Of a stretch of 64,000 nt of DNA, positions 21,957-63,907 are shown piece by piece. Positions within the stretch are counted from its first letter, which is position 1; each line of letters begins with the position of its first letter. The DNA is taken from the NCBI GenBank assembly GCA_964614695.1, contig CAZTMB010000001.1, positions 1,858 through 65,857 of the forward strand. The letters run 5' to 3'. The stretch is from an uncultured Isosphaeraceae bacterium. Lineage in GTDB: Bacteria; Planctomycetota; Phycisphaerae; Phycisphaerales; SM1A02. Below the pieces are notes generated by a model. That model was not told the origin of the DNA, did no database searches, and saw nothing but the letters and a program-made list of their open reading frames with translations. The position numbers and the translations under genes were made by a program.

Positions 21957-23522
21957 ATGAACCGAGGGCTCTCCCTCGCGAACAAGTGCCAGCTGATCTT
22001 CTCGGTGGCGGTGCTCGTGATCCTCGCCGCGGCGCTGAGCGTCCCGTGGGTCCGCACCCAGCGGCTCGTTCGCGAGAACCAGCTCGAGGTCTCGCGGCAA
22101 CTCGCCGAGACCTGGCTCGAGAACGGCTTCACGCTCGGCCGCTCCGAGGGACTTGCGATCCCGATGCGGGTGATCGAACTCGACACCCCGCCGGAGAATC
22201 TCGAGCAGGACGCCTTCCTGGCCGCAAGTCTCCGCAACTTCGAGCGCGAGCCCGAACTCGAGGACGCCTTCCAGGAGGCCGTCGTCGAGGGCCGCACCGT
22301 CTACCGCTACGTCCGGGCGATCCGGCAGAGCGATCGCTCCCGCCTGCAGGACGTCGATCTGCTCGAGTTCTCGCCACGGGTCGAGACTCCGTCGGTGGTC
22401 GACCCGCTGCGGGGACTTCTGGTCATCGACCGCACCAGCCCCGCCGCGGCGGGTCAGCTGCTCCGCAACCGGATCTGGATCGTGACGAGCGGCCTCGGCG
22501 CCGGCCTGCTCGCGATCCTCGTCTTCCACGTGATCCTCACGAAGCTCATCCTCTCGCCGGTCCGCCAACTGCGGGAGACGATCGACCGCGTGAAGCGCGG
22601 CGACCTCTCGGCCCGCTCGACGGTGCGGACCGGCGACGACTTCGAGGACCTCGCCACCGGCCTCGACGCGATGCTCGACCAGGTCGAGTCGAGCCGCGAG
22701 CGGCTCGAGGCGATGAACGAGTCTCTCGACCTCAAGGTGGGCGAACTGTCCGAGGCGAACGTCGGCCTCTACGAGTCGAACCGGCTCAAGAGCGAGTTCC
22801 TCGCGAACGTCAGCCACGAACTCAAGACGCCGCTCAACTCGATCATCGGCTTCGCGGAGCTGCTCGGAGAGCTCGCCCGCAGCGATCCGCAGGCCGATCC
22901 CAAGCGCTTCCGCTACCTCGGGAACATCCTCACGAGCGGCCGCCGCCTGCTCGAGATGATCAGCGAGCTGCTCGAGATGGCGAAGATCGAGGCGGGCCGC
23001 GTCGAGCTCTCGATCGAACCGACGAGCGTGGCCGATCTCGTCGAGGGCCTCGAGGGGATCATGCGTCCGCAGGCCGACGCGAAGGGCATCCGGATCGAGA
23101 GTCGCGTGTCGGCGGAGCTGCCGCCGGTCGAGACCGATCCCGGAAAGCTGCAGCAGATCCTCTTCAACTTCCTCTCCAACGCCGTGAAGTTCTCGCCCGA
23201 AGGCGCGGCGGTCCATCTCGCCGCGGAGCGCTTCACGCGGCCCGACCGCAGCGCGGGCGTGCGGATCTCGGTGCGCGACGAGGGACCGGGCATTCCCTAC
23301 GACATGCAGGACCGCATCTTCGAGAAGTTCCGGCAGGTCGACGCGAGCCACACCCGCACCCACGGCGGCACGGGGCTTGGCCTCGCGATCTGCCGGGAAC
23401 TCGCGGTGAGGCTCGGGGCGACGGTCTCGCTCGTCTCGGAGCCGGGCAAGGGCGCGACCTTCTCGGTCGAACTGCCGCTCGCGTTCGCCGGCGCGACGCC
23501 CGAACCGCTCATGCCGTCGTGA
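21957..23522 (+). CDS. sensor histidine kinase (2 TM, HAMP, HisKA, HATPase_c)
   Basis: HAMP 'LSPVRQLRETIDRVKRGDLSAR', H-box 'FLANVSHELKTPLNSIIGFAELL', N-box 'LFNFLSNAVKF' and G-box 'GGTGLGLAICRELA'. No response regulator nearby. Confidence 0.9.
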   Translation: MNRGLSLANKCQLIFSVAVLVILAAALSVPWVRTQRLVRENQLEVSRQLAETWLENGFTLGRSEGLAIPMRVIELDTPPENLEQDAFLAASLRNFEREPELEDAFQEAVVEGRTVYRYVRAIRQSDRSRLQDVDLLEFSPRVETPSVVDPLRGLLVIDRTSPAAAGQLLRNRIWIVTSGLGAGLLAILVFHVILTKLILSPVRQLRETIDRVKRGDLSARSTVRTGDDFEDLATGLDAMLDQVESSRERLEAMNESLDLKVGELSEANVGLYESNRLKSEFLANVSHELKTPLNSIIGFAELLGELARSDPQADPKRFRYLGNILTSGRRLLEMISELLEMAKIEAGRVELSIEPTSVADLVEGLEGIMRPQADAKGIRIESRVSAELPPVETDPGKLQQILFNFLSNAVKFSPEGAAVHLAAERFTRPDRSAGVRISVRDEGPGIPYDMQDRIFEKFRQVDASHTRTHGGTGLGLAICRELAVRLGATVSLVSEPGKGATFSVELPLAFAGATPEPLMPS

Positions 23523-23582: not shown

Positions 23583-23873
23583 TCAGAGGCTTTCGGAGAT
23601 CAGGCGGTCCGCGTCGGGCACGCGGCGGCGGGCCCAACTCGCGTCGAGCCGTTCGGCGAGCGGCGCGAACTCGGGCCGGCTCGCGAGAAAGCGTGCGACC
23701 GCGAGCGCCACGCGCTCCGGAGGCGCCTCGCCGCCGGGAGCGAGCAGGTCGTAGTCGGGCCACGCGAGCCGCAATCGATGATCGCGGATCCCCTCGGGAC
23801 TCTCGCGTCGCACCAGGAAGATCCAGCAGCCAGGCTGCTCCTCCTGCGAGACGATCTCGAACGCGTCGGCCAT
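23583..23873 (-). CDS. hypothetical 96-aa protein
   Basis: Internal ATG (MADAFEIVSQEEQPGCWIFLV) of track ORF 23583..24311. Balanced amino-acid composition and high third-position GC. No recognisable family. Confidence 0.4.
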   Translation of the reverse strand: MADAFEIVSQEEQPGCWIFLVRRESPEGIRDHRLRLAWPDYDLLAPGGEAPPERVALAVARFLASRPEFAPLAERLDASWARRRVPDADRLISESL

Positions 23874-24078
23874 GGCGGGGTCGAGAGTAGCATGCGTCTC
23901 CTCGCCCTCGAGCCGACGCACGGCGGACGCCGATGGCGGCTGCAACCGCTCGCAGCGACGGGCGAACCCCCTCGCTCGCGTCACGATCCTCCGACGTGCC
24001 TCGCCTCGTCGCCGACCGAACCTCCCGCGCCTTTCCGGCATCTCGATCCGCGCTCCGCGCCCGCCGACCTCTCTGCCA

Positions 24079-25407
24079 ATGTCCTTCCTGATCGAGACGC
24101 TGCGTCTCGGCCTCAACAACCTCCGGCTCCACAAGCTCCGTTCGGTGCTGACGAGCCTCGGCATCATCCTCGGCGTCGCCGCGGTGATCGTGGTGGTCGC
24201 GATCGGAGAAGGGAACAAGCGATCCGCGCTGCGGGACATCGAGTCGCTTGGTGCGACCAACATCATCGTCCGATCGTCGAAGCCGCCGGCGACCGGCAGC
24301 GTGTCGACCATGCAGTCGTTCCTGGTGAACTACGGGCTCAAGTACCAGGACCAGCGGCGTCTCGAGCGGTGGATCGGCGACGCGAAGCAGGTGGTGCCGC
24401 TCAAGAGCGTGGGGTCGGAGATCCGCCGCGGGGCCTCCCGCACCGTGAGCCAGGCCTTTGGAACGGTGCCGGAGCTCGAGCGGGCGGCGAACCTGCGGGT
24501 CAAGTCTCGCGGCCGCTACCTGAGCCCGGAGGACCTCTCGAGTTCGGCCCCGGTCGCGGTGATCGGCTCCGCGATCGCCGAACAGTTCTTCCCGCTGGAG
24601 GACCCCCTCGGCCAGGACCTTCGCATCGACGACGCGATCTTCCGCGTGGTCGGCGTGCTCGATCCGATCGGCTTCGCGGGCGGCGCGGGCTCGGCGCTCG
24701 TCAACCGCGACCTCAACAAGGACATCCACATCCCCTTGTCGACCGCGCAGCAGCGCTTCGGGGACGTGGTCGTGCGGCGGGAGAGCGGTTCGTTCTCGGG
24801 CGAGGAGGTCGAGCTCTACGAGATCTACCTCTCGGCGCCCGACACCGACAGCGTGCTGTCGATGGCCGAGCGAGTCGAGCAGATCGTGGCGACCGGCCAC
24901 CCGGGCATGACCGACGTCCAGCTCATCGTGCCATGGGAACTGCTCGAGAACGCGAAGAAGGCGCTGCTCGTCTGGAACATCATGCTCGTGGCGATCGCGG
25001 CGATCAGCCTGCTCGTCGGCGGCATCGGCATCATGAACATCATGCTCGCTTCGATCACCGAACGCACTCGGGAGATCGGCATCCGACGAGCGCTCGGGGC
25101 GACGCGGCACCACATCGTGAGCCAGTTCCTCGTCGAGACCGGCACGCTGTCGACCGTGGGCGGCCTCATCGGCATCGGGGCAGGCATCGGCGTGGCGCTC
25201 GGGCTTCGCACGATCGTGCCGTGGCTCATGAAACTGCCGATCTTCCAAGGCATCGCCGACGGCAACTTCCGCCTCGAGCCGCAGATCACGGTGTGGTCGA
25301 TCGCGGTCAGCTTCGTGGTGGCGGCCGGAGTGGGCCTGATCTTCGGGATCTACCCCGCGGTGGTCGCCAGCCGCAAGGATCCGATCGAGGCGCTGCGTCA
25401 CGACTGA
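24079..25407 (+). CDS. FtsX/MacB-type ABC transporter permease (no ATPase partner nearby)
   Basis: 'LGLNNLRLHKLRSVLTSLGIILGVAAV' N-terminal TM, a periplasmic MacB_PCD-like region, and C-terminal 'ERTREIGIRRALGATRHHIVSQFLVE' FtsX motif. Confidence 0.85.
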   Translation: MSFLIETLRLGLNNLRLHKLRSVLTSLGIILGVAAVIVVVAIGEGNKRSALRDIESLGATNIIVRSSKPPATGSVSTMQSFLVNYGLKYQDQRRLERWIGDAKQVVPLKSVGSEIRRGASRTVSQAFGTVPELERAANLRVKSRGRYLSPEDLSSSAPVAVIGSAIAEQFFPLEDPLGQDLRIDDAIFRVVGVLDPIGFAGGAGSALVNRDLNKDIHIPLSTAQQRFGDVVVRRESGSFSGEEVELYEIYLSAPDTDSVLSMAERVEQIVATGHPGMTDVQLIVPWELLENAKKALLVWNIMLVAIAAISLLVGGIGIMNIMLASITERTREIGIRRALGATRHHIVSQFLVETGTLSTVGGLIGIGAGIGVALGLRTIVPWLMKLPIFQGIADGNFRLEPQITVWSIAVSFVVAAGVGLIFGIYPAVVASRKDPIEALRHD

Positions 25408-50616: not shown

Positions 50617-50718
50617 TCTGAGCCGTGAGCACTTGGAACCCGCCGCAGTTCGAGCGGTTAGTTGGAGCGTGAACGATCGCACCGTGACAGGCGTAGCGCC
50701 TGCAGGAGCCCTGAGACG

Positions 50719-52095
50719 ATGAAGAGCCTTCTCCCGATCCTGTTTGGCGCCACGCTCGCCGTTTCGTCCGCCGTATCCGCGACGATCCTGGCTTCGGCCC
50801 CGCTTGCCGGCGCGACGGCCTCGGCGGAGGAGCAGTTGGTCTTCCGCAGCGGCAACACCTGGCGGGGGCAGGTTGGCGATCAGGTCCAGATCGAGTTCAC
50901 CGAGAACGGCGTCGTGCAGACGCTCGAGGGAACGCTCGAGCGGATCGAGAAGCGATTCATCCAGGTTCGCGGCACCATCGCGGGCCGCGAGGCGACCAAG
51001 ACGATCATCCTCGGCGACATCCGATCGATGACCTCGACGGGAGCTGGCGCGGCGCCGGCGACCTCCACGCCCTCCGCTCCGGCAGCGCCCGCCCGCAAGC
51101 CCGCCGATCGGCCGTCGGCCTCGCCCGCGGTGATGCCGGTCGAAGGCGCGAACCAGAGCGCCGCCTCGAGCGATTGGCCCGGCGTCTTCCTGCTTCCCCT
51201 GAAGGGAACGCTCGGCATCGGCATGCGGCACGACGAGATCAAGAAGATCGCGGCGGAGGCGGACAAGTACGGTCCGGGCCAGATCATCGTGCTGCTCATC
51301 GACAGCCCCGGCGGCCTCGTCATCGAAGGCGACAAGGTCAGCGACGTCATCAACGACGTGAAGAAGCGGCACCGCGTCGTCGCGTGGATCCGCGAGGCGA
51401 TCTCGGGCGGCGCGTTCACGGCGCTGCACTGCGACGAGAACTACTACATGAGCTTCGGGGCCCTCGGCGCGATCACCATGTTCTCCGGGCAGACCGCCGC
51501 GAGCGGCGCTGAGCTGCAGGCCTGGCTCGAGCGCTGCGGCGAGGTCGCCGAGGCCGGTGGCCGAAATCGCTACGTCGTGCAGGCGATGATCCACGCGCCG
51601 TTGCTCGTGTCCTACGACCGCGACGAGGAGACGGGCGACATCACCTACTACAACACGCTCGAGGGCGAGTTCGACCTCTCCGACGAGGTCAACAACCTGA
51701 CCCTGAACGCGAGCAACGCCCTCCACTCCGGCTACAGCCAGGGCACCGCCGACACCGAGGAGGAGCTGGCGAAGCTGATGCAGCTTCCCGAGTGGAAGGA
51801 GGCCGCCAACGGCGTCGGCCGGAAGATCTCCTCCGACTGGCTCGCGAACGTCGAGAAGGCGAAGGACGAAGTGCCGAAGCTCGTGCAGCGGCTCAACTAC
51901 AAGGGCAGCGGCAGCGGCGACGCCGCGGTCATGCTCGGCACGCAGATCCAGATCATCCAGGAACTCCTTCGCTGGTACGACCGCTGCTATCCGGTGGTCG
52001 TCTACGAGGTTGGCCTGCCGCCCGACAAGGCGCCCCTCGAGCGCCAGCTCGAGGAGATGCGTCGCCAGCTCGCTCAGATGCGTCGCCGCAACTGA
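50719..52095 (+). CDS. secreted NfeD-like (ClpP-class serine protease fold) protein with N-terminal beta domain and C-terminal helical domain
   Basis: Signal 'LLPILFGATLAVSSAVSA'. 'VFLLPLKGTLGIGM...GPGQIIVLLIDSPGGLVIEGDKV...VVAWIREAISGGAFTALHCDENYYM' matches the NfeD/SppA ClpP-fold pattern. Confidence 0.75.
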   Translation: MKSLLPILFGATLAVSSAVSATILASAPLAGATASAEEQLVFRSGNTWRGQVGDQVQIEFTENGVVQTLEGTLERIEKRFIQVRGTIAGREATKTIILGDIRSMTSTGAGAAPATSTPSAPAAPARKPADRPSASPAVMPVEGANQSAASSDWPGVFLLPLKGTLGIGMRHDEIKKIAAEADKYGPGQIIVLLIDSPGGLVIEGDKVSDVINDVKKRHRVVAWIREAISGGAFTALHCDENYYMSFGALGAITMFSGQTAASGAELQAWLERCGEVAEAGGRNRYVVQAMIHAPLLVSYDRDEETGDITYYNTLEGEFDLSDEVNNLTLNASNALHSGYSQGTADTEEELAKLMQLPEWKEAANGVGRKISSDWLANVEKAKDEVPKLVQRLNYKGSGSGDAAVMLGTQIQIIQELLRWYDRCYPVVVYEVGLPPDKAPLERQLEEMRRQLAQMRRRN

Positions 52096-52099
52096 GCCG

Positions 52100-52720
52100 A
52101 TGCCAGACGAACCTGCAATCGCTCCCCCGCAGACCGCGCCGCCCTCCGGCGCGGTCGCTTCGTCTTCGAGCGGCTGGGCGACCGGGCTCGGGATCGTCCT
52201 GCTCGTCTATGCGGGGCTCGGCGTGCTCGTCAACGCCGTCGGCATCGCCATGCTCTTCATGAGCGAGGAGGCCCGTGCGGCGGCGGGCGGGATCAATCCG
52301 GCGAACCTTGCCTTCGGCGGCGTCGCGATCCTGCTCGGGTTGGTGCTGGCGGTCGGCGCGATCGGTCTGCTGCGTCGTCGCCGCTTCGGCGTTCGGGCCT
52401 CGCTGACGTGGGCGGCGGCGAGGCTCGTGCTGCTGCTCGTGGCGTCGATCTACGGCTGGCTCACCCTGCCCACGCAGGTCGACCGGCAGATGGAGCTGAT
52501 GGACGAACGGATGGCCGAGGCGAGAGGCTCGTCCGGAGGCGGATCGCGGTCGGTCTCGGTCAGGGTCGGCGGGGGCGGCGGCGGCCTCGATCGCGAGGCG
52601 ATGCTTCGCTGGTCGAAGATGGCCTACGTCGCCGGCGTGTTCGTGGTGGGCGCCATGCCGGTCGCCACCGCCTGGATCCTCACGAACCGGCGGCGCCGCG
52701 AAGAGATCGCGGGCTGGTAG
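52100..52720 (+). CDS. four-TM membrane protein, hypothetical
   Basis: Four hydrophobic segments, a Gly-rich loop 'GSSGGGSRSVSVRVGGGGGG', and an ATG 5 nt after the upstream stop. Confidence 0.55.
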   Translation: MPDEPAIAPPQTAPPSGAVASSSSGWATGLGIVLLVYAGLGVLVNAVGIAMLFMSEEARAAAGGINPANLAFGGVAILLGLVLAVGAIGLLRRRRFGVRASLTWAAARLVLLLVASIYGWLTLPTQVDRQMELMDERMAEARGSSGGGSRSVSVRVGGGGGGLDREAMLRWSKMAYVAGVFVVGAMPVATAWILTNRRRREEIAGW

Positions 52721-52766: not shown

Positions 52767-53807
52767 TCAGCTCACTTCGCGGCGCTGGAAGAGCAGCGTT
52801 GCGATCGCCAGCGAGGCCGCGATCATCAGCACGCCGTAGGGCAGCACCGCCGCGAAGTAGGAGAAGGGGATCTCCCGCTTCTGCGTCAACGCATCGGCGA
52901 GCCAGAAGACCTGGAAGTCCGGCACCACGGCGTAGGCGACGCGGCAGGCCGCGTAGAGCAGATGCGCTCCATCGAAGAGCGATCGCTCCGCCTCCGGAGC
53001 CGAGGCGAACGCCTCCTCGAGCCGCAGGATCGTCCGACCGAAGAGCCAGTCCGAGAGCAGGCCGATGAGGAAGAGGCCCATGGTGATGGCAAGCGTCGGC
53101 AGCTGGCCGAGCCGCGTGCTCGCGGCGATCGCCACCGCGACGAGCATGAGAAGCGCCATCGCCATGCCGCCGATCGCGAGCAGGATCTGCGGCTCGAACT
53201 CGGTGCCGATGGCCTGCGGCGCCCAGTCGTGGGCGAAGAGCAGCGTCAGCACGTAGGCGAGCAGCAGGAGCGGCAGCCCAAGCAGCACCGCCGTGCTCGT
53301 GAACGCCCACCCGTAGAGGAAGTTCGCCGCCGCCGCGACCGCCACCGCGAGCACGAGGGCGGAGATGCCGAAGGTGAGCGCCGGCAGGTGGTACGGCGTC
53401 CTGACGGTCTGCATGGTTCCGTGGACTTCGACGAGGAGGAACGCCAGTCCGAGGAACGCCACGGCGGCGAGCAGGGCCCCGGAGACGCCGACGTACTTGC
53501 CGAGGATGAACGTCGGTCGCGACACCGGCTTCGAGAGGACCGTCAGTGCGGTTCGATTCTCGATCTCACGGTTGAGCACGCTCGTGGCGAGGAACGCCGC
53601 GAGGACGACCCCGCAGATGAAGATCGTGCTGAGGCCGAGATCGATGAAGAGCCGCTGATCGTCCTCGAGGGTGTAGCCGGAGAAGGGATTCGAGAGGACG
53701 ACGAAGATGGTGCCGGCGGTCAGGACCACCAGCAGCACCGGCTGCCGAATGCTCTCGGCGAAGGTCGTGCGGGCGATCGCCCAGAGCTGTTCGAGGAATC
53801 CGATCAC
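52767..53807 (-). CDS. ABC-2 type transporter permease
   Basis: GTG start (VIGFLEQLWAIARTTFAESIRQ). 'NREIENRTALTVLSKPVSRPTFILGKYVG' is paralogous to 'FEIRDRQILQLMTKPLARSRYLLGKWSG' in 59904..61955. At least six TMs. Confidence 0.75.
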   Translation of the reverse strand: MIGFLEQLWAIARTTFAESIRQPVLLVVLTAGTIFVVLSNPFSGYTLEDDQRLFIDLGLSTIFICGVVLAAFLATSVLNREIENRTALTVLSKPVSRPTFILGKYVGVSGALLAAVAFLGLAFLLVEVHGTMQTVRTPYHLPALTFGISALVLAVAVAAAANFLYGWAFTSTAVLLGLPLLLLAYVLTLLFAHDWAPQAIGTEFEPQILLAIGGMAMALLMLVAVAIAASTRLGQLPTLAITMGLFLIGLLSDWLFGRTILRLEEAFASAPEAERSLFDGAHLLYAACRVAYAVVPDFQVFWLADALTQKREIPFSYFAAVLPYGVLMIAASLAIATLLFQRREVS

Positions 53808-54025
53808 GCAAGGTTCCGAGGGAGGCGCCGAGGCGGCGACGGGGGTGGACAGGGCGAGTAAAGTACCGCCCACTTCGAACCCGGGGGGCATCGGGTTCGT
53901 GTCAGCCCGATCGCTTGGTCATCTGGCCGACCCGCCTCGCTCGGTTCTCGCCGCTTCGGCCGGCAACTCCGAGGCGGAATCTCGGCATCGTTCTCCCGAC
54001 TCCCGCCGCTGCGGCACGGAACTCC

Positions 54026-56230
54026 ATGCGGATCGATCACGTCGCATATCAGCGGGCCACCCGCATCGCCGGCATCGGCCTCCTGCTGCAGCTGGGCATC
54101 GGCCTGACGCTGCTCATCTACGGAACCGTCGCGGGCGACAGCACATTCACGATCGGCTCGGCCTACGCCCTCGCCGGCACGATCGTCTGGGCCACGCTCG
54201 CCCTGGTCTTCAACCAGCACCGGCTCGAGCGGCTCGAGGCGATGGAGTTCGAGGAGATCGAGGCGGCGGCCGCGTCCGGCACCACGATCTTCGAAGGCGA
54301 GGCGCGGGAGGCACGGGTCGCGGCGCGGCGGCTCGAACTCATGCACCGATGGCTGGTGCCGGCGGCAAGCCTGCTGCTCGCGGGCATCCTCGCGACGCTC
54401 GGCTGGCAGATCCTCGCGTGGTTCTCGCTGCAGGACGACCCCAACGCCGACATCTCGAACTTCTCCGTCGGCCAGGCGCTCGGCTGGCAGCTCGCGGTGG
54501 CGACGGGCCTGTCGCTCGCGGCATTCATCTTCTCGCGGTTCGTGGCGGGCATGTCGAAGCAGCCCGCGTGGCAGAACCTCCGCGGCGGCGCCGGCACGAT
54601 GGTCGGCAACGCCCTCATCAGCCTTGCGATCGCGATCGGCCTGGTCTTCCAGCTGCTGCAGAAGCCCACGGTGATCGAGCACATCGCCTACGGCTTCGCG
54701 ATCTTCCAGATCGCCGCCGCGGGTGAGATCGTCCTGAACCTCGTCCTGAATCTCTACCGCCCGCGACGCGTGGGCGAGGTGCCGCGGGCTGCGTTCGACT
54801 CCCGCGTCCTGAGCCTGCTCGCGGCGCCGGACTCGATCGCGCGGAGCGTCGGCGAGGCGATCAACTACCAGTTCGGCTTCGACATCGCGAGCTCGTGGGG
54901 CTATCGCCTGCTGCTCCGCAGCGTGGCCTGGCTGCTCGGGTTCGGGGCGGTCGTGCTGCTGCTGCTCTCGACGGTCGTCGTCGTCGAGCCGGGTCAGCAG
55001 GCGGTCATCCTCAAGCAGGGGCGGCTGCAGGCGGACGTGAAGCGGGACGGCGTGCTCTTCAAGTTGCCCTGGCCGTTCGAGCAGGCGGAACTGCACGACG
55101 TCGCGACGATCCGGGAGATCTCGCTCGGCGGCGTGGTGCCTCGACCGCGCGAGGTCAACCTGTGGGGGCAGTCCGAGGCGATCGATCCGGAACGGCGTCC
55201 CTTCATCGTCGGCGCGAGCGCCGAGGCCGCCGAGATGCAGTCGGCGCTCGAGATCCTCGACGGCGGTTCGTTCGGCGGCGGGACGCCGTCGGCCTCCGGC
55301 GGCCTGCTCGGAGGCGGCGGCTCGATCCTGGCCGCGGGCACGCCCACGCCGGCGCCCGACGCCGGCTCGGGCTCGGTCACCAACCAGTTCGCCCTCGTCG
55401 ATGCCGACGTGCTGCTTCGCTACCGCATCAAGCCCGACGGCCTGCTCGACTGGCTCGGGTTCTGCAACGACACGCGCACGAGGCGTTCCGTGCTCGACAT
55501 GCGGGAGCGGGCGCTGCGCGACCTCGCGGTGCGCGAAGTGACGCAGGCGCTCTCGACCCAGCCGCTCGATGCGGTGCTCTCGCCGCAGGGCGATTCGCTC
55601 TCGACCGAACTTGGACGTCGCATCCAGCGGACCTTCGACGAGCACTCGACGGGCGTCGAGGTCGTCTCGATCATGATTCCTCGGCTTCGCCCGCCGGGCG
55701 AGGAGTCGGCCCGCTTCGAGGAGTTCTCGATCGCGGTGCAGAACTCGCGGAAGATCGTGGAGCAGGCCCAGCAGACCGTGAACTCGACGATGGCGACCCT
55801 CGTGGGGGACGCCGGCCGCGCCGCCACGATCGTCGCTGCGATCGACGCGTTGCGCGATCTCGGGCGACGCGAAGGCACCGAGAGCGAGGCGTACCTGAAG
55901 GCGCAGGTCGAGGTCGAGCAGATGCTGCTCGACTCCCGCGCGATGACCGCGAGCGTGATCAGCACCGCGAGGGCGCGTCGATGGCAGCTGCACATGGAGG
56001 CCCGCCGCAAGGCCGAGGAGGTCCTCGGCGAGGCGCCGGCCTACTCCGTGGATCCCGAGCTCTACCGCCAACGGGCGCTCATGCGGGCGCTCGCCGAGGC
56101 GCTGCCCCGCGTTCGCGTGAAGTACGTGCTCTCGCCCGACCCCGAGCGGGTGCGTCTCGATCTCTCCATGCAGCAGCCCGACTCCGGACTCAACCTCGCC
56201 GACACGATCGGAGAGTCGCTCAATCCGTGA
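54026..56230 (+). CDS. polytopic membrane domain fused to an SPFH/Band-7 domain
   Basis: About 330 N-terminal residues with roughly six to seven TMs, then 'VVVVEPGQQAVILKQGRL...GVLFKLPWPFEQAELHDV' (SPFH start) and a long helical C-terminus. The track ORF starts at 53915; I chose the ATG at 54026. Confidence 0.7.
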   Translation: MRIDHVAYQRATRIAGIGLLLQLGIGLTLLIYGTVAGDSTFTIGSAYALAGTIVWATLALVFNQHRLERLEAMEFEEIEAAAASGTTIFEGEAREARVAARRLELMHRWLVPAASLLLAGILATLGWQILAWFSLQDDPNADISNFSVGQALGWQLAVATGLSLAAFIFSRFVAGMSKQPAWQNLRGGAGTMVGNALISLAIAIGLVFQLLQKPTVIEHIAYGFAIFQIAAAGEIVLNLVLNLYRPRRVGEVPRAAFDSRVLSLLAAPDSIARSVGEAINYQFGFDIASSWGYRLLLRSVAWLLGFGAVVLLLLSTVVVVEPGQQAVILKQGRLQADVKRDGVLFKLPWPFEQAELHDVATIREISLGGVVPRPREVNLWGQSEAIDPERRPFIVGASAEAAEMQSALEILDGGSFGGGTPSASGGLLGGGGSILAAGTPTPAPDAGSGSVTNQFALVDADVLLRYRIKPDGLLDWLGFCNDTRTRRSVLDMRERALRDLAVREVTQALSTQPLDAVLSPQGDSLSTELGRRIQRTFDEHSTGVEVVSIMIPRLRPPGEESARFEEFSIAVQNSRKIVEQAQQTVNSTMATLVGDAGRAATIVAAIDALRDLGRREGTESEAYLKAQVEVEQMLLDSRAMTASVISTARARRWQLHMEARRKAEEVLGEAPAYSVDPELYRQRALMRALAEALPRVRVKYVLSPDPERVRLDLSMQQPDSGLNLADTIGESLNP

Positions 56231-56281
56231 CCTCGCCTCGCGCCTGAACGCTTCCGACGACTCCCTCTCCCCACCGACGCC

Positions 56282-57217
56282 ATGAATCGAACCTTCGCGA
56301 TCCTCCTCGGCCTGCTGATCCTTGCGGTGCTGGTGCTCTTCAACACCACCTACACCGTCAACTTCCACGAACTCGCCGTGAAGACCCGCTTCGGCCGTCC
56401 CGCCGGCATCGTCGGCGAGGGACTGCACTTCAAGCTGCCGTTCTTCATGGAACGGGTGTCGAAGCTCGACACGCGTCTGCAGCTCGTCGAGAGCCCGCTC
56501 GAGACCGTGCTCACCCGCGACGGCCAGCAGGTCGTGGTGCAGGCGTTCATGCTGTGGAAGATCGACCCCGCCGAGGACGCGGTGATGCGCTTCTTCACGA
56601 GCTACGGCGGCACCGACGCGGCGAGCCGCGAGCTCGAGACGCGGCTGCAGGGCGCGGTGCGTCTCGTCGGCGGCTACGAGTTCAAGGATCTCGTCGGCGC
56701 CGACAGCCGGCTGCCCGCGATCGAGACCGCGATCCTCGCGGACCTGCAGGCGAACGCGGTCGCGGGCATCGATCCGGTCTCGGTCGGAATCAGCCGCGTG
56801 GTGCTGCCGCCCAAGACGACCGTCGCGGTGCTCAGCCGCATGGCCGAGGTGCAGAACACCCTCGTCAAGCTCGAGGACGCCCGAGGCGCGAGCGAGGCGG
56901 AGGCCCTGCGAAGCCAGGCCGCGGCGCAGGCCGACGCGATCCGGAGCTTCGCCGAACAGTGGGCCGCCCGCATCGAGGCGGTCGGCAACGAGGAGGCGAC
57001 GCGGTACTACCAGGAGATGAAGTCCGAGGCCGGCCTCGCGGTCTTCCTCTCGTGGCTCGACACGCTGAAGGCGGGACTGCGCGGCAGCACGACGTTCGTC
57101 ACCGACACCTCGCAGGCGCCGTTCCACCTGCTCGATCTCGGAGCCGCCACCGATGCGGGCGGGATCCCGCAGCCGAGCGGCGATCCGTCCAGCACCTCCA
57201 CGGGGGGCACTCCGTGA
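56282..57217 (+). CDS. SPFH/Band-7 protein (HflC-like)
   Basis: N-terminal TM 'FAILLGLLILAVLVLF' and 'VNFHELAVKTRFGRPAGIVGEGLHFKLPFFMERVSKLDTRLQ'. Confidence 0.8.
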   Translation: MNRTFAILLGLLILAVLVLFNTTYTVNFHELAVKTRFGRPAGIVGEGLHFKLPFFMERVSKLDTRLQLVESPLETVLTRDGQQVVVQAFMLWKIDPAEDAVMRFFTSYGGTDAASRELETRLQGAVRLVGGYEFKDLVGADSRLPAIETAILADLQANAVAGIDPVSVGISRVVLPPKTTVAVLSRMAEVQNTLVKLEDARGASEAEALRSQAAAQADAIRSFAEQWAARIEAVGNEEATRYYQEMKSEAGLAVFLSWLDTLKAGLRGSTTFVTDTSQAPFHLLDLGAATDAGGIPQPSGDPSSTSTGGTP

Positions 57218-58662
57218 GCGAGGAGCTCGACGATGGACTGAACTCCGGCGGCATGCCGAGCGAGGAGTTGCCGGCGGGCGAAGCGCCGCGTCGTGCCGCG
57301 AGCGCCGCATTCGAAGTCGCGACGGAGCCCGGCTCCGCGGCGTCGTTGCGCGATGCGATGGATCCGGCGAACCAGAGCCTCGGCGAAGCGCTGCGGCTCT
57401 CGTACCGCGTGCTGCAGCTGGGCATCCTTGCGCTCGTCGCGACCTTCCTGCTGTCCGGCTTCCAGACGGTGCAGGACGGATCCGCCGGCGTGAAGACGCT
57501 CTTCGGCGCGATCGTCGGCGAGCCCGGCGACGAGCAGCTCGCGCCGGGGCTCCATCCCTTCTGGCCCTATCCGGTCGGACAGATCGTGACGGTCGAACTG
57601 AAGCGCCCGGTCGAAGTCGGCGAGGCGTTCTGGCCTCGCTATCGCCGCGGCGAGAAGACTCTCGAAGAGGCGACCGACGGCGCCGACCTCACCAAGCACC
57701 TGCAGCCCGGCGAGGACGGTTCGCTGCTCACCGCCGACGGCGACCTCGCGCACCTGCAGATCCAGGCCGAGTACGTCGTCGAGGATCCGGTCAGCCTGCT
57801 TCGCACGATGCGTCCGGAGATGCTGCCGCAGGTCGTGGCGCTCGCGCTCGAGCGTGGCGCCGTCGCGGCGGTCTCCCGGCTCTCCCTCGAGGAGCTCACC
57901 GAACTTCGCGAGCAGCCGGCGCTGGCGATTCGCGACGATGCGCAGGCGGTGCTCGACGAGCTCGACTGCGGAGTGCGCCTCGCGTCGGTCACGCTGCCGG
58001 TCCGCATCGCGCCGCTCGCGGTGCGTCGCAACTTCGCCCAGGTTCAGACCAAGCGCGAAGAGGCCAAGACCGCCGTCGAGCGGGCGCGGCAGCAGGCCGC
58101 GACGACGCTCACCGCCGCGGCGGGGCAGTTCGCCTCCGGCGAGCTGATCCGACTGATCATCGAGTACGAGAACGCGCTCACGCTCGGCGACCAGGCGGTG
58201 GCCGACGAGGTGCTCGGCCGCATCGGCGAACGGTTTGCGCAGCGCGACGTCGGCGGCGAGGCCGCGATGATCGTCGCACGGGCCGAGGCGGCGATCTCCG
58301 CGAAGCGTTCGTCGCTCGCCAAGGAGGCGCGCCGCCTGCAGGGCCTGCTGCCGGCCTACCGCGAGAATCCCGAGCAGCTCGTCCGCCAGCTGTGGCTCGA
58401 CGCGGTCCGCACCGTGCTCGAGGACGGCGAGGCGGAGGTCTTCTCCGTGCCTGGCAACCTCGCCCTGGTCGACATGGCGATCGAGAGTTCGCCCGACGTC
58501 ATGCAGCTGCGCCGCCGCGCCGAACTCGAGCGCAAGAAGCGCGAAGCCGACGCCGCCGCGCTCACGCTGCAGCCGTTCCGCCTCGACACGCGAAACATCA
58601 TGATCAACCAGGCGGGCCGACGCCTCGAGCGCGACGCGAGCCGCGGCTTCGGCAACGAGTGA
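57214..58662 (+). CDS. SPFH/Band-7 protein (HflK-like) with long coiled-coil C-terminus
   Basis: GTG overlaps the upstream stop (GTGA). TM 'LQLGILALVATFLLSGF' and 'VQDGSAGVKTLFGAIVGEPGDEQLAPGLHPFWPYPVGQIV'. Confidence 0.75.
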   Translation: MSEELDDGLNSGGMPSEELPAGEAPRRAASAAFEVATEPGSAASLRDAMDPANQSLGEALRLSYRVLQLGILALVATFLLSGFQTVQDGSAGVKTLFGAIVGEPGDEQLAPGLHPFWPYPVGQIVTVELKRPVEVGEAFWPRYRRGEKTLEEATDGADLTKHLQPGEDGSLLTADGDLAHLQIQAEYVVEDPVSLLRTMRPEMLPQVVALALERGAVAAVSRLSLEELTELREQPALAIRDDAQAVLDELDCGVRLASVTLPVRIAPLAVRRNFAQVQTKREEAKTAVERARQQAATTLTAAAGQFASGELIRLIIEYENALTLGDQAVADEVLGRIGERFAQRDVGGEAAMIVARAEAAISAKRSSLAKEARRLQGLLPAYRENPEQLVRQLWLDAVRTVLEDGEAEVFSVPGNLALVDMAIESSPDVMQLRRRAELERKKREADAAALTLQPFRLDTRNIMINQAGRRLERDASRGFGNE

Positions 58663-58708
58663 TGCGGACCGCCCGATTCCCCCGACTTCCCCGCGGAGCA
58701 CGCGCGAC

Positions 58709-59914
58709 ATGGTGACCACGAACGAGAGCCAGACCCCCGTCGTCGAGGCGGCCGGGCTCGTCAAGGTCTTCAGCGACTTCTGGATGCGGGCGAAGGCTCG
58801 CGCCGTCGACGGCATCGACTTCTCGATCCGGCGCCACGAGATCTTCGGCCTGCTCGGGCCCAACGGCTCGGGCAAGAGCACGACGATCAAGCTGATCCTC
58901 GGCCTGCTCCGCAAGACCCGCGGCCGGCTGACCGTCTTCGGTCGCGACCCCTCGGACGTCTCGATCAAGCGGCGGATCGGATACCTGCCCGAGGAGTCGT
59001 ACATGTACCGCTTCCTCAACGCCCACGAGACGCTCGACTACTACGGGCGGATCTTCGGGCTCCGGGGCGCGGTGCGGAAGCGGCGCATCGAGGAGCTGCT
59101 CGAGATGGTCGGCCTCGGCGGCGCCGGGCATCGCCCGGTCGGCGAGTACTCCAAGGGCATGACGCGCCGCCTCGGCATCGCGCAGGCGCTGATCAACGAC
59201 CCGGAGTTCCTCATCCTCGACGAGCCGACCTCGGGCCTCGATCCGATCGGCACGCGGCAGGTGAAGGACCTGCTCGTCGATCTCAAGAAGCGCGGCAAGA
59301 CGATCCTGCTCTCGTCGCATCTTCTCGCCGACGTCGAGGACGTCTGCGACCGCATGGTGATCCTGTACGGAGGCCGGATCCGCGCCGCGGGCACCGGCGA
59401 GGAGCTGCTCCGCGACAGTTCGCACACGCTCATCCGAACGGGTCGCCTGCACGACTCGACGCTCGCGGAGATCGAACGCGTGCTCGCCACGAAGGAGGGC
59501 TTCGGCATCGACGGCGTTGAACTGCCGCGACAGAAGCTCGAGGAGTTCTTCCTGCAGATCGTCGAACGGGCTCGCGCCGAGCAGGCGGCGACCTCGGGCG
59601 CGGCGGCCGGCGGCCCGACCGCGAAGTTCCTCATGGGCGACGAGCCCTCCGAGGGCGAAGAGCTCATCGAAGGACTCGTGCGCGGCGAGCCGGCCATGCC
59701 GGCGGCGCCGGTCAAGGCCGTCAAGGCGGAGTCCGCGGCGCCGGCCAAGGAGTCGGTGCTCGAGGAGCTGCTGCAGGCGGAGCGTCCCGCGCCGTCGGCG
59801 AAGCCGGCGGCCAAGGCGCCCGAAGCGCCCAAGGGCGTCGACTCGTCGGTGATCGACGGACTGCTCGGCGGCGAGTCCTCCGACGGCGCGAGGAAGGGCG
59901 GCGATGGGGCGTAG
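58709..59914 (+). CDS. ABC transporter ATP-binding protein (ABC-2/NatA-GldA-like) with ~150-aa Ala/Pro/Lys/Glu-rich tail
   Basis: Walker A 'GPNGSGKSTT', signature 'YSKGMTRRLGIAQAL', Walker B 'LILDEPTSGLD' and 'LSSHLL'. Confidence 0.9.
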   Translation: MVTTNESQTPVVEAAGLVKVFSDFWMRAKARAVDGIDFSIRRHEIFGLLGPNGSGKSTTIKLILGLLRKTRGRLTVFGRDPSDVSIKRRIGYLPEESYMYRFLNAHETLDYYGRIFGLRGAVRKRRIEELLEMVGLGGAGHRPVGEYSKGMTRRLGIAQALINDPEFLILDEPTSGLDPIGTRQVKDLLVDLKKRGKTILLSSHLLADVEDVCDRMVILYGGRIRAAGTGEELLRDSSHTLIRTGRLHDSTLAEIERVLATKEGFGIDGVELPRQKLEEFFLQIVERARAEQAATSGAAAGGPTAKFLMGDEPSEGEELIEGLVRGEPAMPAAPVKAVKAESAAPAKESVLEELLQAERPAPSAKPAAKAPEAPKGVDSSVIDGLLGGESSDGARKGGDGA

Positions 59915-61955
59915 GCTGCGCGAGATCCTGCGTCGGCTCGATCGATGGCAGCACGGCCGAGGCGCGAAGATCGCGTGCTCGATCGCGATGCTTGTCCTCG
60001 TCGTCGCCGCGTTCTGGCCACTGCACCGGGAAGCCTCGCGACTCGACCGCCTCGAGGCGTCGATCGTCGAGCTCCTGAAGGATGCGAACCTCGCCGAACG
60101 GGACGCGGCGGCGGTCGAGCTCTACGAACAGGGCACCGTGACCGTCGACGGCACGACCTACGGCGACGGACGGTTCCGCGGCGTGGATCAGCTCTTCGAC
60201 GAAGCCGGCGCGCTGCTCGCGGCCGCGTCGGTCGGCGAGATCGTCGCGGCCGACGAGATCCCGGACTGGGCGCCGACGTTCCTGGTCCAGTCGCCCTCGG
60301 CGACGATCTCGTGGGCGATGCTCGTGCTCGCGTGGCTGTTCGTCGCGGTCTGGGCGGGGACGACGGTGCAACTGGTCCTCGCGGTGCTGGCCACGATCGT
60401 GCTGGCCGGCCCGTTCCTCCTCTTCGGCCGGGTCGGCGCGACCTTCGCGATCGGCGGCATGGGCCTGCTCGGATTCAGCTTCGTGCTGCTCGTGCGGCTC
60501 GTGATCGCCGGCGTCTCCGGCCTCGGCCAGCCTGGTGCGGTGGCCGCGACGGTCATCCGCGAGGCGGTGCGGCAGAAGGCCTTCGCAGGCTTCATCGTGG
60601 TGCTGCTCGTGGTGCTTCCGCTCATTCCGCTCTGGATCGACCCCACCACGCCGCTTCGCTACCAGCTGCAGGTCTTCATCGGCCGAAGCCTCGGCATCAC
60701 CTACGCCGTGGCGGCCTGCATGACGCTCGTGCTCGCGTGCGCCACGGTCGCCTTCGAGATCCGCGACCGGCAGATCCTGCAGCTGATGACCAAGCCGCTC
60801 GCGCGGAGCCGCTATCTGCTCGGCAAGTGGTCGGGCATCGTGCTCCTCGACGCGGTGCTGCTAGCGGTGTGCGGGCTCTCGATCTTCCTGTTCATCCAGT
60901 ACCTCAAGACCCGTCCCGCCGCCGACGCCTTCGACGCGCAGGCGGTGCGCGACGAGGTGCTCGTCGCCCGCGTGGGCATCGAGCCGCAGTACGACCTGCT
61001 GCCCCGGGCTCGGCTGCTCGAGATGATCGACGAGGCGATCGAGAACGACCCGATGCTGCGGGACGAGATCGCCCAGGGCGAGCGCGACGAGTACGAGGTG
61101 CGTCGCGAACTCTTCGCCGAGTATCAGAAGGAGAACCTCGCCGGACAGCGCTCGATCGCTCCCGGGGACGAGAAGATCTACCGCTTCCCGGGGCTCGACG
61201 CGGCGCGTCGGCTCGGGGCGAACCTCACGCTTCGCTACAAGTTCTACGCCGGTGAATCGGATCCTCACGTCCAGTACCCCGTGATCTTCCGATTCCCGGA
61301 GAACGGCACGTGGACGGATCGCCGCTACGTGCCGGCGCAGTCGATGGTGCTCGTGATCCCCGCGGACCTGATCGGCGAGGAGGGCGTCCTCGAGGTGGGC
61401 ATCGCCAATGCGGCGTTCAATCCGCAAGCCGCGCCGGGGACCGCCTCGGTCTTTCCCGCCGAGCACACCATCTTCTTCGATCCCGAAGGGCTCGAACTCC
61501 TCTATCCGGTCTCGACCTTCGAAGCGAACTTCCTGCGCGGCATGCTCGTCACGCTCGTCAAGCTCTCCTTCCTCGCGATGCTTGGCGTGGCGATGGCGTC
61601 GTTCCTGAGCTTCCCGGTCGCGTGCCTCGTGGGCTTCGCGGTGTTCCTCGCCGCCGAGGCGGGCCCGTTCCTCGCCCAGAGCATCAGCAGCTACCGCATC
61701 TACGAGGACGACGGTTCGGTCGATTGGGTGAAGCAGGGGATCCGCTCGATCGCGGTCGGCACCGAGTGGGTGCTGCGGGCGTTCGGCCAGACCCGGCCGA
61801 ACCCGGCGCTCGTCGAAGGGCGCGAGGTCTCGTGGGGCGACGTCTTCCGGAGCCTCGCCGTGATCGGCTTGGGTTGGTCGGCCGCGGTGCTTCTCGTCGC
61901 GATGCTCGTCTTCCGCCGGAAGGAGCTCGCCGTCTACAGCGGGCAGACCTCATGA
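59904..61955 (+). CDS. large ABC-2-type permease with N-terminal extension and ~230-aa extracytoplasmic insert
   Basis: Overlaps the ATPase gene by 11 nt. Has the permease core motif 'LMTKPLARSRYLLGKWSG', multiple TMs at both ends, and a soluble insert between 'FIQYLKTRPAAD' and 'FLRGMLVTLVKLSFL'. Confidence 0.7.
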   Translation: MGRRLREILRRLDRWQHGRGAKIACSIAMLVLVVAAFWPLHREASRLDRLEASIVELLKDANLAERDAAAVELYEQGTVTVDGTTYGDGRFRGVDQLFDEAGALLAAASVGEIVAADEIPDWAPTFLVQSPSATISWAMLVLAWLFVAVWAGTTVQLVLAVLATIVLAGPFLLFGRVGATFAIGGMGLLGFSFVLLVRLVIAGVSGLGQPGAVAATVIREAVRQKAFAGFIVVLLVVLPLIPLWIDPTTPLRYQLQVFIGRSLGITYAVAACMTLVLACATVAFEIRDRQILQLMTKPLARSRYLLGKWSGIVLLDAVLLAVCGLSIFLFIQYLKTRPAADAFDAQAVRDEVLVARVGIEPQYDLLPRARLLEMIDEAIENDPMLRDEIAQGERDEYEVRRELFAEYQKENLAGQRSIAPGDEKIYRFPGLDAARRLGANLTLRYKFYAGESDPHVQYPVIFRFPENGTWTDRRYVPAQSMVLVIPADLIGEEGVLEVGIANAAFNPQAAPGTASVFPAEHTIFFDPEGLELLYPVSTFEANFLRGMLVTLVKLSFLAMLGVAMASFLSFPVACLVGFAVFLAAEAGPFLAQSISSYRIYEDDGSVDWVKQGIRSIAVGTEWVLRAFGQTRPNPALVEGREVSWGDVFRSLAVIGLGWSAAVLLVAMLVFRRKELAVYSGQTS

Positions 61956-63907
61956 TTCGGGACCGCGTCATCCAACTCGTCGCCGCGATCGTCGCGATCG
62001 TCGCCTTCGTCGGCGCCGGGTCGCTCCTTCCCGTCGCGGTCAAGCGCAGCGAGGAGGCGGGCCTCCGCTACACCGACGTCGCCGTCGATGGCGCTCCACC
62101 GATCGTCGCGATCGGCACCGCGATCGGGGCGCTGCGGGGCATCATCGTCGACTATCTCTGGATCCGGCTGACGATGATGAAGGAGCAGGGGCTCTTCTAC
62201 GAGATCATGGCCAACGCCGATCTCATCACGAAGCTCCAGCCTCGCTTCCCGCAGGTGTGGGCGTTTCATGGCCACAACATGGCCTACAACGTCTCGGTCA
62301 TGACCAACACGCCGGAGGAGCGGTGGAACTGGGTCCGTTCCGGCATCGACCTCGTGCGGAACGAAGGCCTTCGCTACAACCCGAACGACCTGGTGCTCCA
62401 CAAGGAGCTCGCGTTCTGGTTCGGGCACAAGATCGACGGGATCTCCGACGACGCGCACCTGCACTACAAGCGCGAGTTCGCCCGCGAGTGGCAGCTGCTG
62501 CTCGGCCAGCCGCCGATCGACCATGCCAGCCGCGAGGCGTGGATCCGGGCGATCGCCGAGGCGCCGAAGACCCTCGACGAGGCGGAGGCCCGCACCCCGG
62601 GAGTGAAGGCGCTGGTCGAGCGGCTCCAGGAGGCCGCCGGCGCGGGAGGGCTGACCGGTTTCGCCCTCGACAAGCGGCTGCTGCTCGCCTACGGCGAGTG
62701 GGAAGCGCTGCGGACCTCGCCGTACGCGCGGCTGCTCGACCTCGAGCCGCAGCTTCGCGCGAGCAGCCCGCTCTACCGCGGCATCGACGAGGTCTTCTCC
62801 GATCCGGACCCGGAGGTGCAGAAGGCGGTCCGCACCCTCGTCGAGTTCCTGCGGAGGAAGGTGCTCCTCGACGAGTACAACATGGATCCGGTGCGGATGC
62901 ACCGCTACACGCTCGACGTCGGGCCGCTCGACTGGCGGCATCCGCAGGCCCATTCGTTCTACTGGGCGAAGAAGGGCACCGAGGACGGCGAGGGGCGGGT
63001 CGACGATCCCGACGACATCTACAAGATCATCAACAACGACCGCGCGCAGATCCACGCGATGCAGGCGATGGCCCGCTCGGGCCTCATGAGCGTCGATCCG
63101 TTCAGCAACGACAACCCGGGACGTCTCTCCGACGCGCGGTGGATCAAGGTGATCGACCGCTACTTCCGCGAGCTCTACGACAAGCACTACGAGTCCCGAG
63201 GAGCCGGCGCGGACACCTTCACCGACTTCCACGAGAACTTCATGACCTCGGCGGTGCGCGAGCTCTACCGGGCGGGCGACCTCGAGGGCGCCCAGGAGAT
63301 CCTCGACGAGCTCGATCGCCTCTACGGACGCGGCGGCATCGTCCCGAACACCAAGTACGCACGGGATCTCAAGACCTTCGTCGACGAGACCACCGTCGGC
63401 GAGTACGAGTACCAGCCCGACATCGCCCGCTCGGACGTCTACGCCGCGCTGCAGCGAGGCTTCCGCGAAGGGCTGCTGCTCAACCGCCCGAAGGTGCTCG
63501 AGGAGGCCCGCATCTTCGCGCGGGATCTCATCGACTACTTCAAGAACAACCGCTACTACGACTTCGTGACCAAGTTCGGCGAGAGCCGCATCGGCGACCT
63601 GATCGGCGATCTCGAGGACAGCGAGCGGGTGGTCTTCCAGCAGGTGCTGATGGATCGCAGCCTGCCGCTCATCGACCGGCTCACGATCTACAACCGCGCG
63701 AACGAGAGTTTCCAGCGCCGTGCCTACGACGCGGTGAAGCCCCAGCTCGAGGGCGAGTTCACGGCGAGCCCGATGTCGCGGACCCTGACCTTCGGCCAGG
63801 TGCTTCCCGAGCCGCCGGGCATGCAGGCCTACCGCGCCGAGCAGGCCCGCGAGGCCGCGGCCCGGCAGGCGGAGCGGGAGGAGCGCCTCGACCTGAGCCC
63901 GAACTGA
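61952..63907 (+). CDS. 651-aa N-terminally anchored protein of unknown function
   Basis: ATGA overlap with the permease stop. TM 'VIQLVAAIVAIVAFVGAGSLL'. Balanced, Trp/Tyr-containing globular composition and high third-position GC. No family recognised by eye. Confidence 0.7.
   Translation: MIRDRVIQLVAAIVAIVAFVGAGSLLPVAVKRSEEAGLRYTDVAVDGAPPIVAIGTAIGALRGIIVDYLWIRLTMMKEQGLFYEIMANADLITKLQPRFPQVWAFHGHNMAYNVSVMTNTPEERWNWVRSGIDLVRNEGLRYNPNDLVLHKELAFWFGHKIDGISDDAHLHYKREFAREWQLLLGQPPIDHASREAWIRAIAEAPKTLDEAEARTPGVKALVERLQEAAGAGGLTGFALDKRLLLAYGEWEALRTSPYARLLDLEPQLRASSPLYRGIDEVFSDPDPEVQKAVRTLVEFLRRKVLLDEYNMDPVRMHRYTLDVGPLDWRHPQAHSFYWAKKGTEDGEGRVDDPDDIYKIINNDRAQIHAMQAMARSGLMSVDPFSNDNPGRLSDARWIKVIDRYFRELYDKHYESRGAGADTFTDFHENFMTSAVRELYRAGDLEGAQEILDELDRLYGRGGIVPNTKYARDLKTFVDETTVGEYEYQPDIARSDVYAALQRGFREGLLLNRPKVLEEARIFARDLIDYFKNNRYYDFVTKFGESRIGDLIGDLEDSERVVFQQVLMDRSLPLIDRLTIYNRANESFQRRAYDAVKPQLEGEFTASPMSRTLTFGQVLPEPPGMQAYRAEQAREAAARQAEREERLDLSPN

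Follow-up and report, generated by a model that had tools for sequence, protein, structure and literature searches.

A conserved seven-gene module of Phycisphaerae joins HflK/C-like SPFH genes to those of an ABC-2 exporter and may encode one envelope complex

We analyzed a block of seven membrane-protein genes, in which three SPFH genes adjoin the genes of an ABC-2 exporter, in a 64,000-nucleotide stretch of DNA (hereafter the window) from an uncultured planctomycete (assembly GCA_964614695.1, contig CAZTMB010000001.1, positions 1,858 to 65,857). Six of the genes, designated G1 to G6, follow one another on the forward strand. G1 (54026-56230) encodes a 734-aa protein with a bundle of six transmembrane helices, a seventh helix (TM7) and an HflK-like SPFH domain; G2 (56282-57217) encodes a 311-aa HflC-type SPFH protein with a single N-terminal transmembrane helix; and G3 (57214-58662), which starts with GTG, encodes a 482-aa HflK-type SPFH protein. 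These are followed by G4 (58709-59914), a 401-aa ABC ATPase of the DrrA/GldA/NodI type, G5 (59904-61955), a 683-aa ABC-2 permease, and G6 (61952-63907), a 651-aa protein of no described family with an N-terminal transmembrane anchor and, in its model, a TPR-like helical solenoid. An initial annotation of this DNA had placed six same-strand genes at these positions, and the recomputed junctions from G1 to G6 (+51, -4, +46, -11 and -4 nt) agree with it. While its six genes stand, the boundary that it drew around them does not, since it overlooked a seventh gene, here called ABC2up (52767-53891, reverse strand), which is divergent from G1 and encodes a 374-aa ABC-2 permease with about eight transmembrane helices that is a paralog of G5.

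Long spurious open reading frames are frequent in the window owing to its background of about 70% GC. The composition of G1-G6 is coding-like, with GC contents of 0.90-0.94 at third codon positions (GC3) and 0.40-0.47 at second positions (GC2), and the GC3 of ABC2up is 0.91. Ortholog alignments place the start of G1 at 54026 rather than at an upstream TTG at 53915, and the divergent start codons of ABC2up and G1 lie 134 bp apart. The inverted repeats between these two genes have arms of 8 nt only, which is at chance level. A scan of the 52-64 kb region found no promoter-like sites and only chance-level terminator-like matches, and an Rfam scan of the window returned no RNA elements. The GTG start of G3 overlaps the stop of G2 by 4 nt.

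The arrangement is conserved well beyond the close relatives of the window. A scan of species-representative genomes yielded 295 G6 relatives, the best 80 of which were fetched; loci were mapped by tblastn with all module proteins and counted if they extended at least 9.3 kb upstream of G6. The complete, ordered set of ABC2up on the reverse strand and G1, G2, G3, G4, G5 and G6 on the forward strand was present in 66/66 loci, with ABC2up directly upstream of G1 on the opposite strand in every one of them, which is far beyond chance. Synteny within the close clade alone is weak evidence, because the neighboring genes are conserved there as well (NfeD upstream, FAA hydrolase and RNase P downstream). 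In eight distant loci (L085-L092), three of which come from complete genomes (4.2, 5.7 and 7.4 Mb), G1-G3, G5 and G6 are 27-35% identical to their counterparts in the window. The flanks of these loci mostly differ, both from locus to locus and from the window, and include genes for a response regulator, a P-type ATPase, CTP synthase, aldose epimerase, VWA/ExbBD proteins, an ammonium transporter and a secretin; the seven-gene block is nevertheless intact. The synteny on which the initial annotation had made its proposal depend is thus kept at about 30% protein identity amid mostly changed surroundings. Starting the search from G1 or from G6 led to the same outcome, two of the eight distant loci being reached from G1.

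The families are also alike in size, with 767 and 657 matches for G6 and 868 for G1, and G6 homologs of 57-95% identity occur in hundreds of metagenome-assembled genomes (MAGs). Median junctions over 63-82 loci are 16, -4, 15, -4 and 3 nt, values for which start calls are approximate and outliers occur at each junction; G3 and G4 overlap or abut in about a quarter of the loci, for example by 4 nt in L003. These genes are a deeply conserved, co-inherited set. Moreover, the module looks like vertically inherited core-genome content and not an accessory island, because it is found in all related loci and lies amid ordinary chromosomal genes.

The sources matched by a profile of distant G6 proteins are named Phycisphaeraceae, Phycisphaerales, Phycisphaera, Poriferisphaera, or unresolved Planctomycetota/Planctomycetes, and one further source is named "Planctomycetales bacterium ZRK34". 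All source names that we judged reliable belong to Phycisphaerae or Planctomycetota. Several other contigs (L008, L016, L023, L058, L083 and others) are titled Isosphaeraceae, Singulisphaera, Bifidobacterium or Candidatus Kuenenia and encode G6 proteins 57-77% identical to that of the window. These MAG labels look wrong, because other close relatives of the window G6 are labeled Phycisphaerales; the Singulisphaera, Kuenenia and Bifidobacterium titles (G6 57-63% identical) were treated as mislabels and were not counted as presence outside Phycisphaerae.

All three SPFH proteins exceed the Pfam gathering cut-off of 23.6 bits for Band_7 (PF01145), with 30.1 bits for G1, 79.8 for G2 and 54.5 for G3, and orthologs of these genes also have precomputed PF01145 matches. 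The initial identification of three SPFH paralogs is therefore borne out. To assign subfamilies to G2 and G3, profiles built from 11 orthologs were compared with the E. coli proteins. The G2 profile aligned with HflC at E=1.6e-40 over residues 5-315 of 334, against 2e-10 for HflK, whereas the G3 profile aligned with HflK at E=2e-28, against 6e-9 for HflC. Neither equivalog cut-off is reached: G2 scores 79.9 bits for HflC (TIGR01932, cut-off 134.4), and G3 and G1 score 51.8 and 46.5 bits, respectively, for HflK (TIGR01933, cut-off 159.4). As judged by these profile comparisons, G2 and G3 are divergent members of the HflK/C clade and not equivalogs. G3 consists of an N-terminal tail of about 60 aa, one transmembrane helix and the SPFH domain. 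Mutual BLASTP comparisons of G1, G2 and G3 give E values of 0.001 or worse, which suggests that the three paralogs are ancient.

G1 departs from the usual SPFH layout in its N-terminal half, running in order through the six-helix bundle (residues ~10-245), a conserved loop (244-291), TM7, the SPFH domain and long C-terminal helices. An AlphaFold2 (AF2) model built from a 45-sequence alignment has a mean predicted local distance difference test score (pLDDT) of 76. In this model, the first ~250 residues form a helical transmembrane bundle (pLDDT 85-97), followed by TM7, a beta-rich SPFH domain at 317-555 and helices at 560-692. The top Foldseek match of the C-terminal 400 residues is HflK (7vhq_E, E=2e-9, about 400 columns), and the further matches are likewise whole protomers of HflC, erlins, stomatin, prohibitin and flotillin. 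As modeled, G1 is a complete HflK-like protomer, with SPFH domain and helices, fused to a six-helix bundle. The profiles and the model agree with the initial description of one polytopic SPFH fusion, one HflC-like and one HflK-like protein. The fusion is full length in all orthologs (676-818 aa). Its most conserved segment is the loop between TM6 and TM7 (window 54755-54898), where the pattern YRPRR..R.AFDSR...NYQFGF..SSW is invariant in the sampled orthologs. G1 and G2 are predicted to combine the features of a cage protomer, namely an anchor, an SPFH domain and long helices, and their oligomerization is likewise a prediction.

The N-terminal bundle of G1 (54026-54760) has no Pfam match even at E<=10. 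Its identification as a permease-like transmembrane domain of the ABC-2 type was rejected, as hhalign against the ABC2up family gave a probability of only 0.5%. Foldseek places it weakly near the cation diffusion facilitators (CDF) ZnT and YiiP (E 0.014-0.1, target TM-score (TMt) 0.40-0.47), which we regard as a lead only; there is no Cation_efflux profile match at E<=10, and inspection of the bundle sequence revealed no CDF-type HxxxD/DxxxD pair. A P-type ATPase gene adjoins the module in three loci (L086, L091 and L092), which may be an ion-related lead for the bundle or a coincidence.

The exporter part of the module comprises G4, G5 and ABC2up. G4 matches ABC_tran (PF00005) at 107.2 bits against a cut-off of 25, and its Walker A (GPNGSGKST), signature (YSKGM), Walker B (LILDEP) and H-loop (SH) motifs are invariant in 11 orthologs; on its sequence, it is an intact, active-looking ABC ATPase. 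The best NCBIfam matches all lie below their cut-offs: drrA at 213.9 bits (cut-off 312.45), GldA at 185.8 (402.6) and NodI at 153.4 (424), along with a lantibiotic-protection ABC ATPase family at 181.3. From about residue 290 (window 59580-59914), G4 continues into a disordered tail rich in A, E, G, K and P, in keeping with the ABC ATPase with a low-complexity tail of the initial annotation. Among orthologs, this tail keeps the short motifs TSGA..GG..A.FL and D.SVID.LLG, and a conserved C-terminal domain is also present.

ABC2up passes two Pfam thresholds, with 32.1 bits for ABC2_membrane_5 (PF13346; cut-off 25) and 27.3 bits for ABC2_membrane_2 (PF12679; cut-off 27.2). G5, at 25.6 bits, falls just below the latter, and ABC2_membrane_2 matches are recorded for its orthologs in L089 and L087. 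Both permeases also match ABC2_membrane_4 / ABC2_membrane_5, and neither has an NCBIfam match. G5 and ABC2up align by BLASTP at E=4e-9, and their ortholog profiles align end to end by hhalign (97.7% probability, E=1.3e-12). The initial assignments thus clear their profile thresholds for G1-G4, but G5 is 1.6 bits short and owes its place to profile-profile homology with a paralog that passes. On these alignments, G5 and ABC2up are paralogous ABC-2 transmembrane subunits, and ABC2up probably serves the exporter as its second transmembrane subunit. As the initial annotation had noted, G5 is oversized: its 683 aa, compared with 374 in ABC2up, include an insert of ~215 aa (331-546), located where ABC2up has its TM3-TM4 loop, and an N-terminal extension, the soluble part of which is missing in distant orthologs. 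The G4 tail, the G5 insert and the G5 extension have no Pfam match at E<=10. None of the module genes was seen to encode a substrate-binding-protein domain. Two near-identical contigs differ in their calls of the G5 ortholog, with 386 aa in L003 (8761-9921) and 707 aa in L004 (7798-9921); the short call is probably an assembly or frameshift artefact and not a real truncation.

G6 had been described as an N-anchored protein of 651 aa with no recognizable motif. The transmembrane anchor is indeed present, and searches of Pfam (even at E<=10, TPR families included), NCBIfam and PDB sequences all came back empty. The label of orphan given to it holds in the sense that it has no known family, but not at the level of sequence, as an exhaustive search found 2156 representatives of 50%-identity clusters at E<=1e-3, 675 of them at E<=1e-30. 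An AF2 model from a 45-sequence alignment (pLDDT 83, predicted TM-score (pTM) 0.72) consists of an N-terminal transmembrane helix, a second, amphipathic helix and an all-alpha solenoid of ~580 aa. The best Foldseek matches in the PDB are the TPR proteins Naa15, Tom71 and Ctr9, and these are weak (E 0.008-0.02, TM-score below 0.2). We read G6, from its model, as a membrane-anchored TPR-like scaffold without an enzyme fold. An enzymatic role was considered and rejected, with no PDB sequence match and only TPR-like fold matches.

Hydropathy and charge were used to infer the topology of the module proteins. Like HflC and HflK, G2 and G3 seem to span the membrane once, with the N-terminus inside. 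In G1, the seven transmembrane helices and the positively charged loop before TM7 would make the conserved loop cytoplasmic and the SPFH domain periplasmic. The G5 insert is predicted to lie in a periplasmic loop by the topology read for ABC2up. G6 has a positive N-terminus, an acidic stretch after its first transmembrane helix and a moderately hydrophobic second helix (1.0-1.2), and this charge pattern suggests a periplasmic solenoid. The periplasm is therefore predicted to be common to all large soluble domains, namely the three SPFH domains, the G5 insert and the G6 solenoid, and the cytoplasm to the ATPase, the G4 tail and the G1 loop.

We tentatively favor, with slightly less than even confidence, the reading that in Phycisphaerae the seven products assemble into a single inner-membrane complex, with an exporter corralled by an HflK/C-like ring, much as the initial annotation had suggested a caged or scaffolded exporter. 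In this model, G1, G2 and G3 would co-assemble into a hetero-oligomeric, HflK/C-like ring or cage on the periplasmic face, bounding a patch of membrane occupied by G6 and by the exporter (G5, ABC2up and two copies of G4). The G5 insert and the G6 solenoid would sit under or beside the cage, and the G1 loop (244-291) and the motifs of the G4 tail are candidate cytoplasmic contact points and possible docking partners. The cargo would probably be hydrophobic or destined for the envelope, as suggested by the ABC-2 fold and by the lack of a substrate-binding-protein gene in the module. The full architecture, a three-component cage with one subunit bringing its own six-helix domain, set around a heterodimeric ABC-2 exporter and a periplasmic solenoid, is a possibility that we put at clearly less than even. 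HflK/C is reported to build a periplasmic cage around FtsH (PMC12048511), and stomatin cages are reported to enclose AQP1 and UT-B (PMC12407830). Since caging of this kind is known for SPFH proteins, a single complex is the most economical model.

Several observations weigh against this model. Conserved gene order attests to joint selection and is not proof of one complex, and with the permease genes on opposite strands the seven genes cannot all belong to one transcript. The second helix of G6 is of borderline hydrophobicity, which leaves the compartment of this protein uncertain. Finally, because G2 and G3 are true relatives of HflC and HflK, FtsH, the client in E. coli, could simply be theirs as well.

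This last point leads to what we rank as the main rival, a doubtful but serious one: two functions in one conserved operon, with G1-G3 as HflK/HflC equivalents that modulate FtsH, and G4, G5, ABC2up and G6 as an independent exporter that is co-transcribed for co-regulation only, for example under envelope stress. The G2 and G3 families do align with HflC (1.6e-40) and HflK (2e-28) above any other SPFH subfamily, and FtsH is reported as the only experimentally established client for this subfamily (PMC12048511, PMC12005517). Furthermore, a table in a 2009 survey, if its unlabeled column is read correctly, lists no canonical HflK/C in three Planctomycetes genomes (PMC2636767), in which case G1-G3 could be divergent orthologs. 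However, no ftsH gene was found in the window region or in any of the ~90 loci examined, a result that concerns these loci only. The SPFH and ABC parts never separate at ~30% identity, even though most of the surrounding genes change, and some genomes show translational coupling at the G3/G4 junction. The third paralog, with its invariant six-helix domain, has no counterpart in HflKC-FtsH, and the scores fall far below the HflK and HflC equivalog cut-offs.

A second alternative, which we consider improbable, is an envelope-biogenesis conveyor in which the pump extracts a lipid, lipoprotein or glycan, G6 passes this cargo toward the outer membrane and the SPFH ring serves as an assembly platform. 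ABC-2 pumps are known to export glycans and lipids (Wzm/Wzt, TarGH, ABCA/ABCG), and machines for polysaccharide and outer-membrane export are known to work with TPR scaffolds in the periplasm (AlgK, BcsC, PgaA, BamD). The G5 insert and the G6 solenoid are both predicted to be periplasmic. The module also appears class-wide, like core envelope machinery. Nevertheless, among the loci examined no glycosyltransferase, lipid-synthesis or outer-membrane gene is conserved near the module, and the likeness of G6 to TPR proteins is weak (E ~0.008, TM-score below 0.2). The conveyor refines the single-complex model more than it competes with it.

Protection against membrane stress or antimicrobial peptides seems less probable still; here, a pump of the DrrA or lantibiotic-immunity type would expel membrane-active compounds while the SPFH proteins stabilize or repair the membrane locally. 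The ABC2_membrane_4 and ABC2_membrane_5 families, which ABC2up and G5 match, include immunity-type permeases, and the NCBIfam matches of G4 include drrA (213.9 bits) and the lantibiotic-protection ATPase (181.3 bits). In Bacillus, SPFH proteins are reported to have a link with membrane stress and with Psp recruitment (PMC8581546). However, these matches are below family cut-offs and generic for ABC-2 ATPases, and PADLOC returned nothing past generic ATPase matches. In the loci examined, conservation beside the module extends to no regulator, no sensor kinase and no biosynthetic gene, and the module moreover resembles vertically inherited core genome and not an accessory island. An anti-phage defence system was rejected, with generic ABC/AAA matches in PADLOC for G4 and none for G1-G3, G5 or G6.

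Upstream of the module, the window carries a gene for an NfeD1b_N / ClpP-like serine protease (50662-52095, forward strand; Pfam 64 bits), followed after ~4 nt by a gene for a small protein with four transmembrane helices (~52100-52720, forward strand; GC3 ~0.9). NfeD proteins are classic SPFH partners. A protease gene of the NfeD1b type lies upstream of the module in many close-clade loci but in 0/8 distant ones, and NfeD was therefore rejected as a core component. A strong, GC-rich hairpin at 52132-52156 (forward strand; 10 pairs and a T-rich tail) is probably not a terminator of the NfeD gene, as it falls within the reading frame for the small membrane protein. The remainder of the window is ordinary chromosome, with genes for DnaE, H+-pyrophosphatase, GuaA, cytochrome oxidase and cytochrome b. 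It also contains a separate, ordinary ABC system, a MacB-type permease (MacB_PCD + FtsX; 23872-25407, forward strand) that adjoins a HAMP/HisKA histidine kinase gene (21957-23522). On one Phycisphaerales contig, a Cas4-Cas1 fusion and cas2 (L001, 17663-19689) lie ~6 kb downstream of the module and are unrelated to it.

Among known systems, E. coli HflK/HflC-FtsH (PDB 7VHP, 7WI3, 9CZ2) shares with the module adjacent HflC-type and HflK-type genes, N-anchored SPFH proteins with long C-terminal helices, and the same predicted periplasmic orientation. The module differs in adding a third, HflK-like paralog fused to a six-helix bundle, in its gene order (K-like fusion, C, K), and in its operon partners, which are an ABC-2 exporter and a solenoid protein instead of hfq/hflX, with no ftsH nearby. 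Human stomatin, whose ring encapsulates specific channels and transporters (AQP1 and UT-B, as PMC12407830 reports), is similar in concept; the SPFH proteins of the module are of the HflK/C type, and their client would be an ABC-2 pump encoded in the same operon. The module recalls stomatin-NfeD operons through the NfeD1b-type gene upstream of it in close relatives of the window, although this linkage is lost in all eight distant loci. In flotillin-associated rhodopsin loci (PMC10308929), an SPFH gene is likewise genomically linked to the gene of a specific polytopic membrane protein, but the SPFH type and the partner differ, and no ATPase is reported there.

Pseudomonas aeruginosa PaFlo5-PaFlo6-PaFlo7 (PMC13086221) are three divergent SPFH paralogs in one predicted operon. 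The text of that paper does not contain 'ABC' or 'transporter'; moreover, the PaFlo operon has a patchy distribution resembling horizontal gene transfer, whereas the module is kept in every related locus examined. The exporter part resembles the DrrAB, GldAFG and NosFY systems, in that its ATPase is nearest drrA, GldA and NodI, its permeases match ABC2_membrane_2, 4 and 5, and it has no gene with a substrate-binding-protein domain. All scores of the module, however, are below the equivalog or subfamily cut-offs. Its permease paralogs are encoded on opposite strands, one with a predicted periplasmic insert of ~215 aa, its ATPase carries a long, disordered, motif-bearing tail, and the pump is linked to SPFH genes.

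The initial annotation knew of no described module that unites a set of three SPFH paralogs with an ABC-2 exporter in one operon, and a full-text literature search likewise turned up no SPFH set co-operonic with an ABC-2 exporter, no fusion of the G1 type and no description of the G6 family. ABC transporters go unmentioned in the 2009 survey of SPFH operons in prokaryotes (PMC2636767). The components all come from known families; it is their combination that appears to be new.

A client and a physiological role are known for only a minority of bacterial SPFH proteins, chiefly HflK/C with its client FtsH. Genes of the HflK/C type that stay locked to one transporter at ~30% identity provide a natural, testable client pair, which could reveal how an SPFH cage affects a membrane machine, whether by sequestration, lipid environment, assembly or gating. 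In G1, an SPFH protomer fused to its own polytopic domain, the module presents a new architecture, and the G6 family, with more than 2000 clusters at 50% identity, is uncharacterized and seen mainly in aquatic MAGs labeled Phycisphaerae. If a cage does surround the exporter, it would be the first case of an SPFH assembly with a client encoded in its own operon, and of an ABC transporter working within an SPFH-delimited membrane compartment. The module may reflect a lineage-specific feature of the planctomycete envelope.

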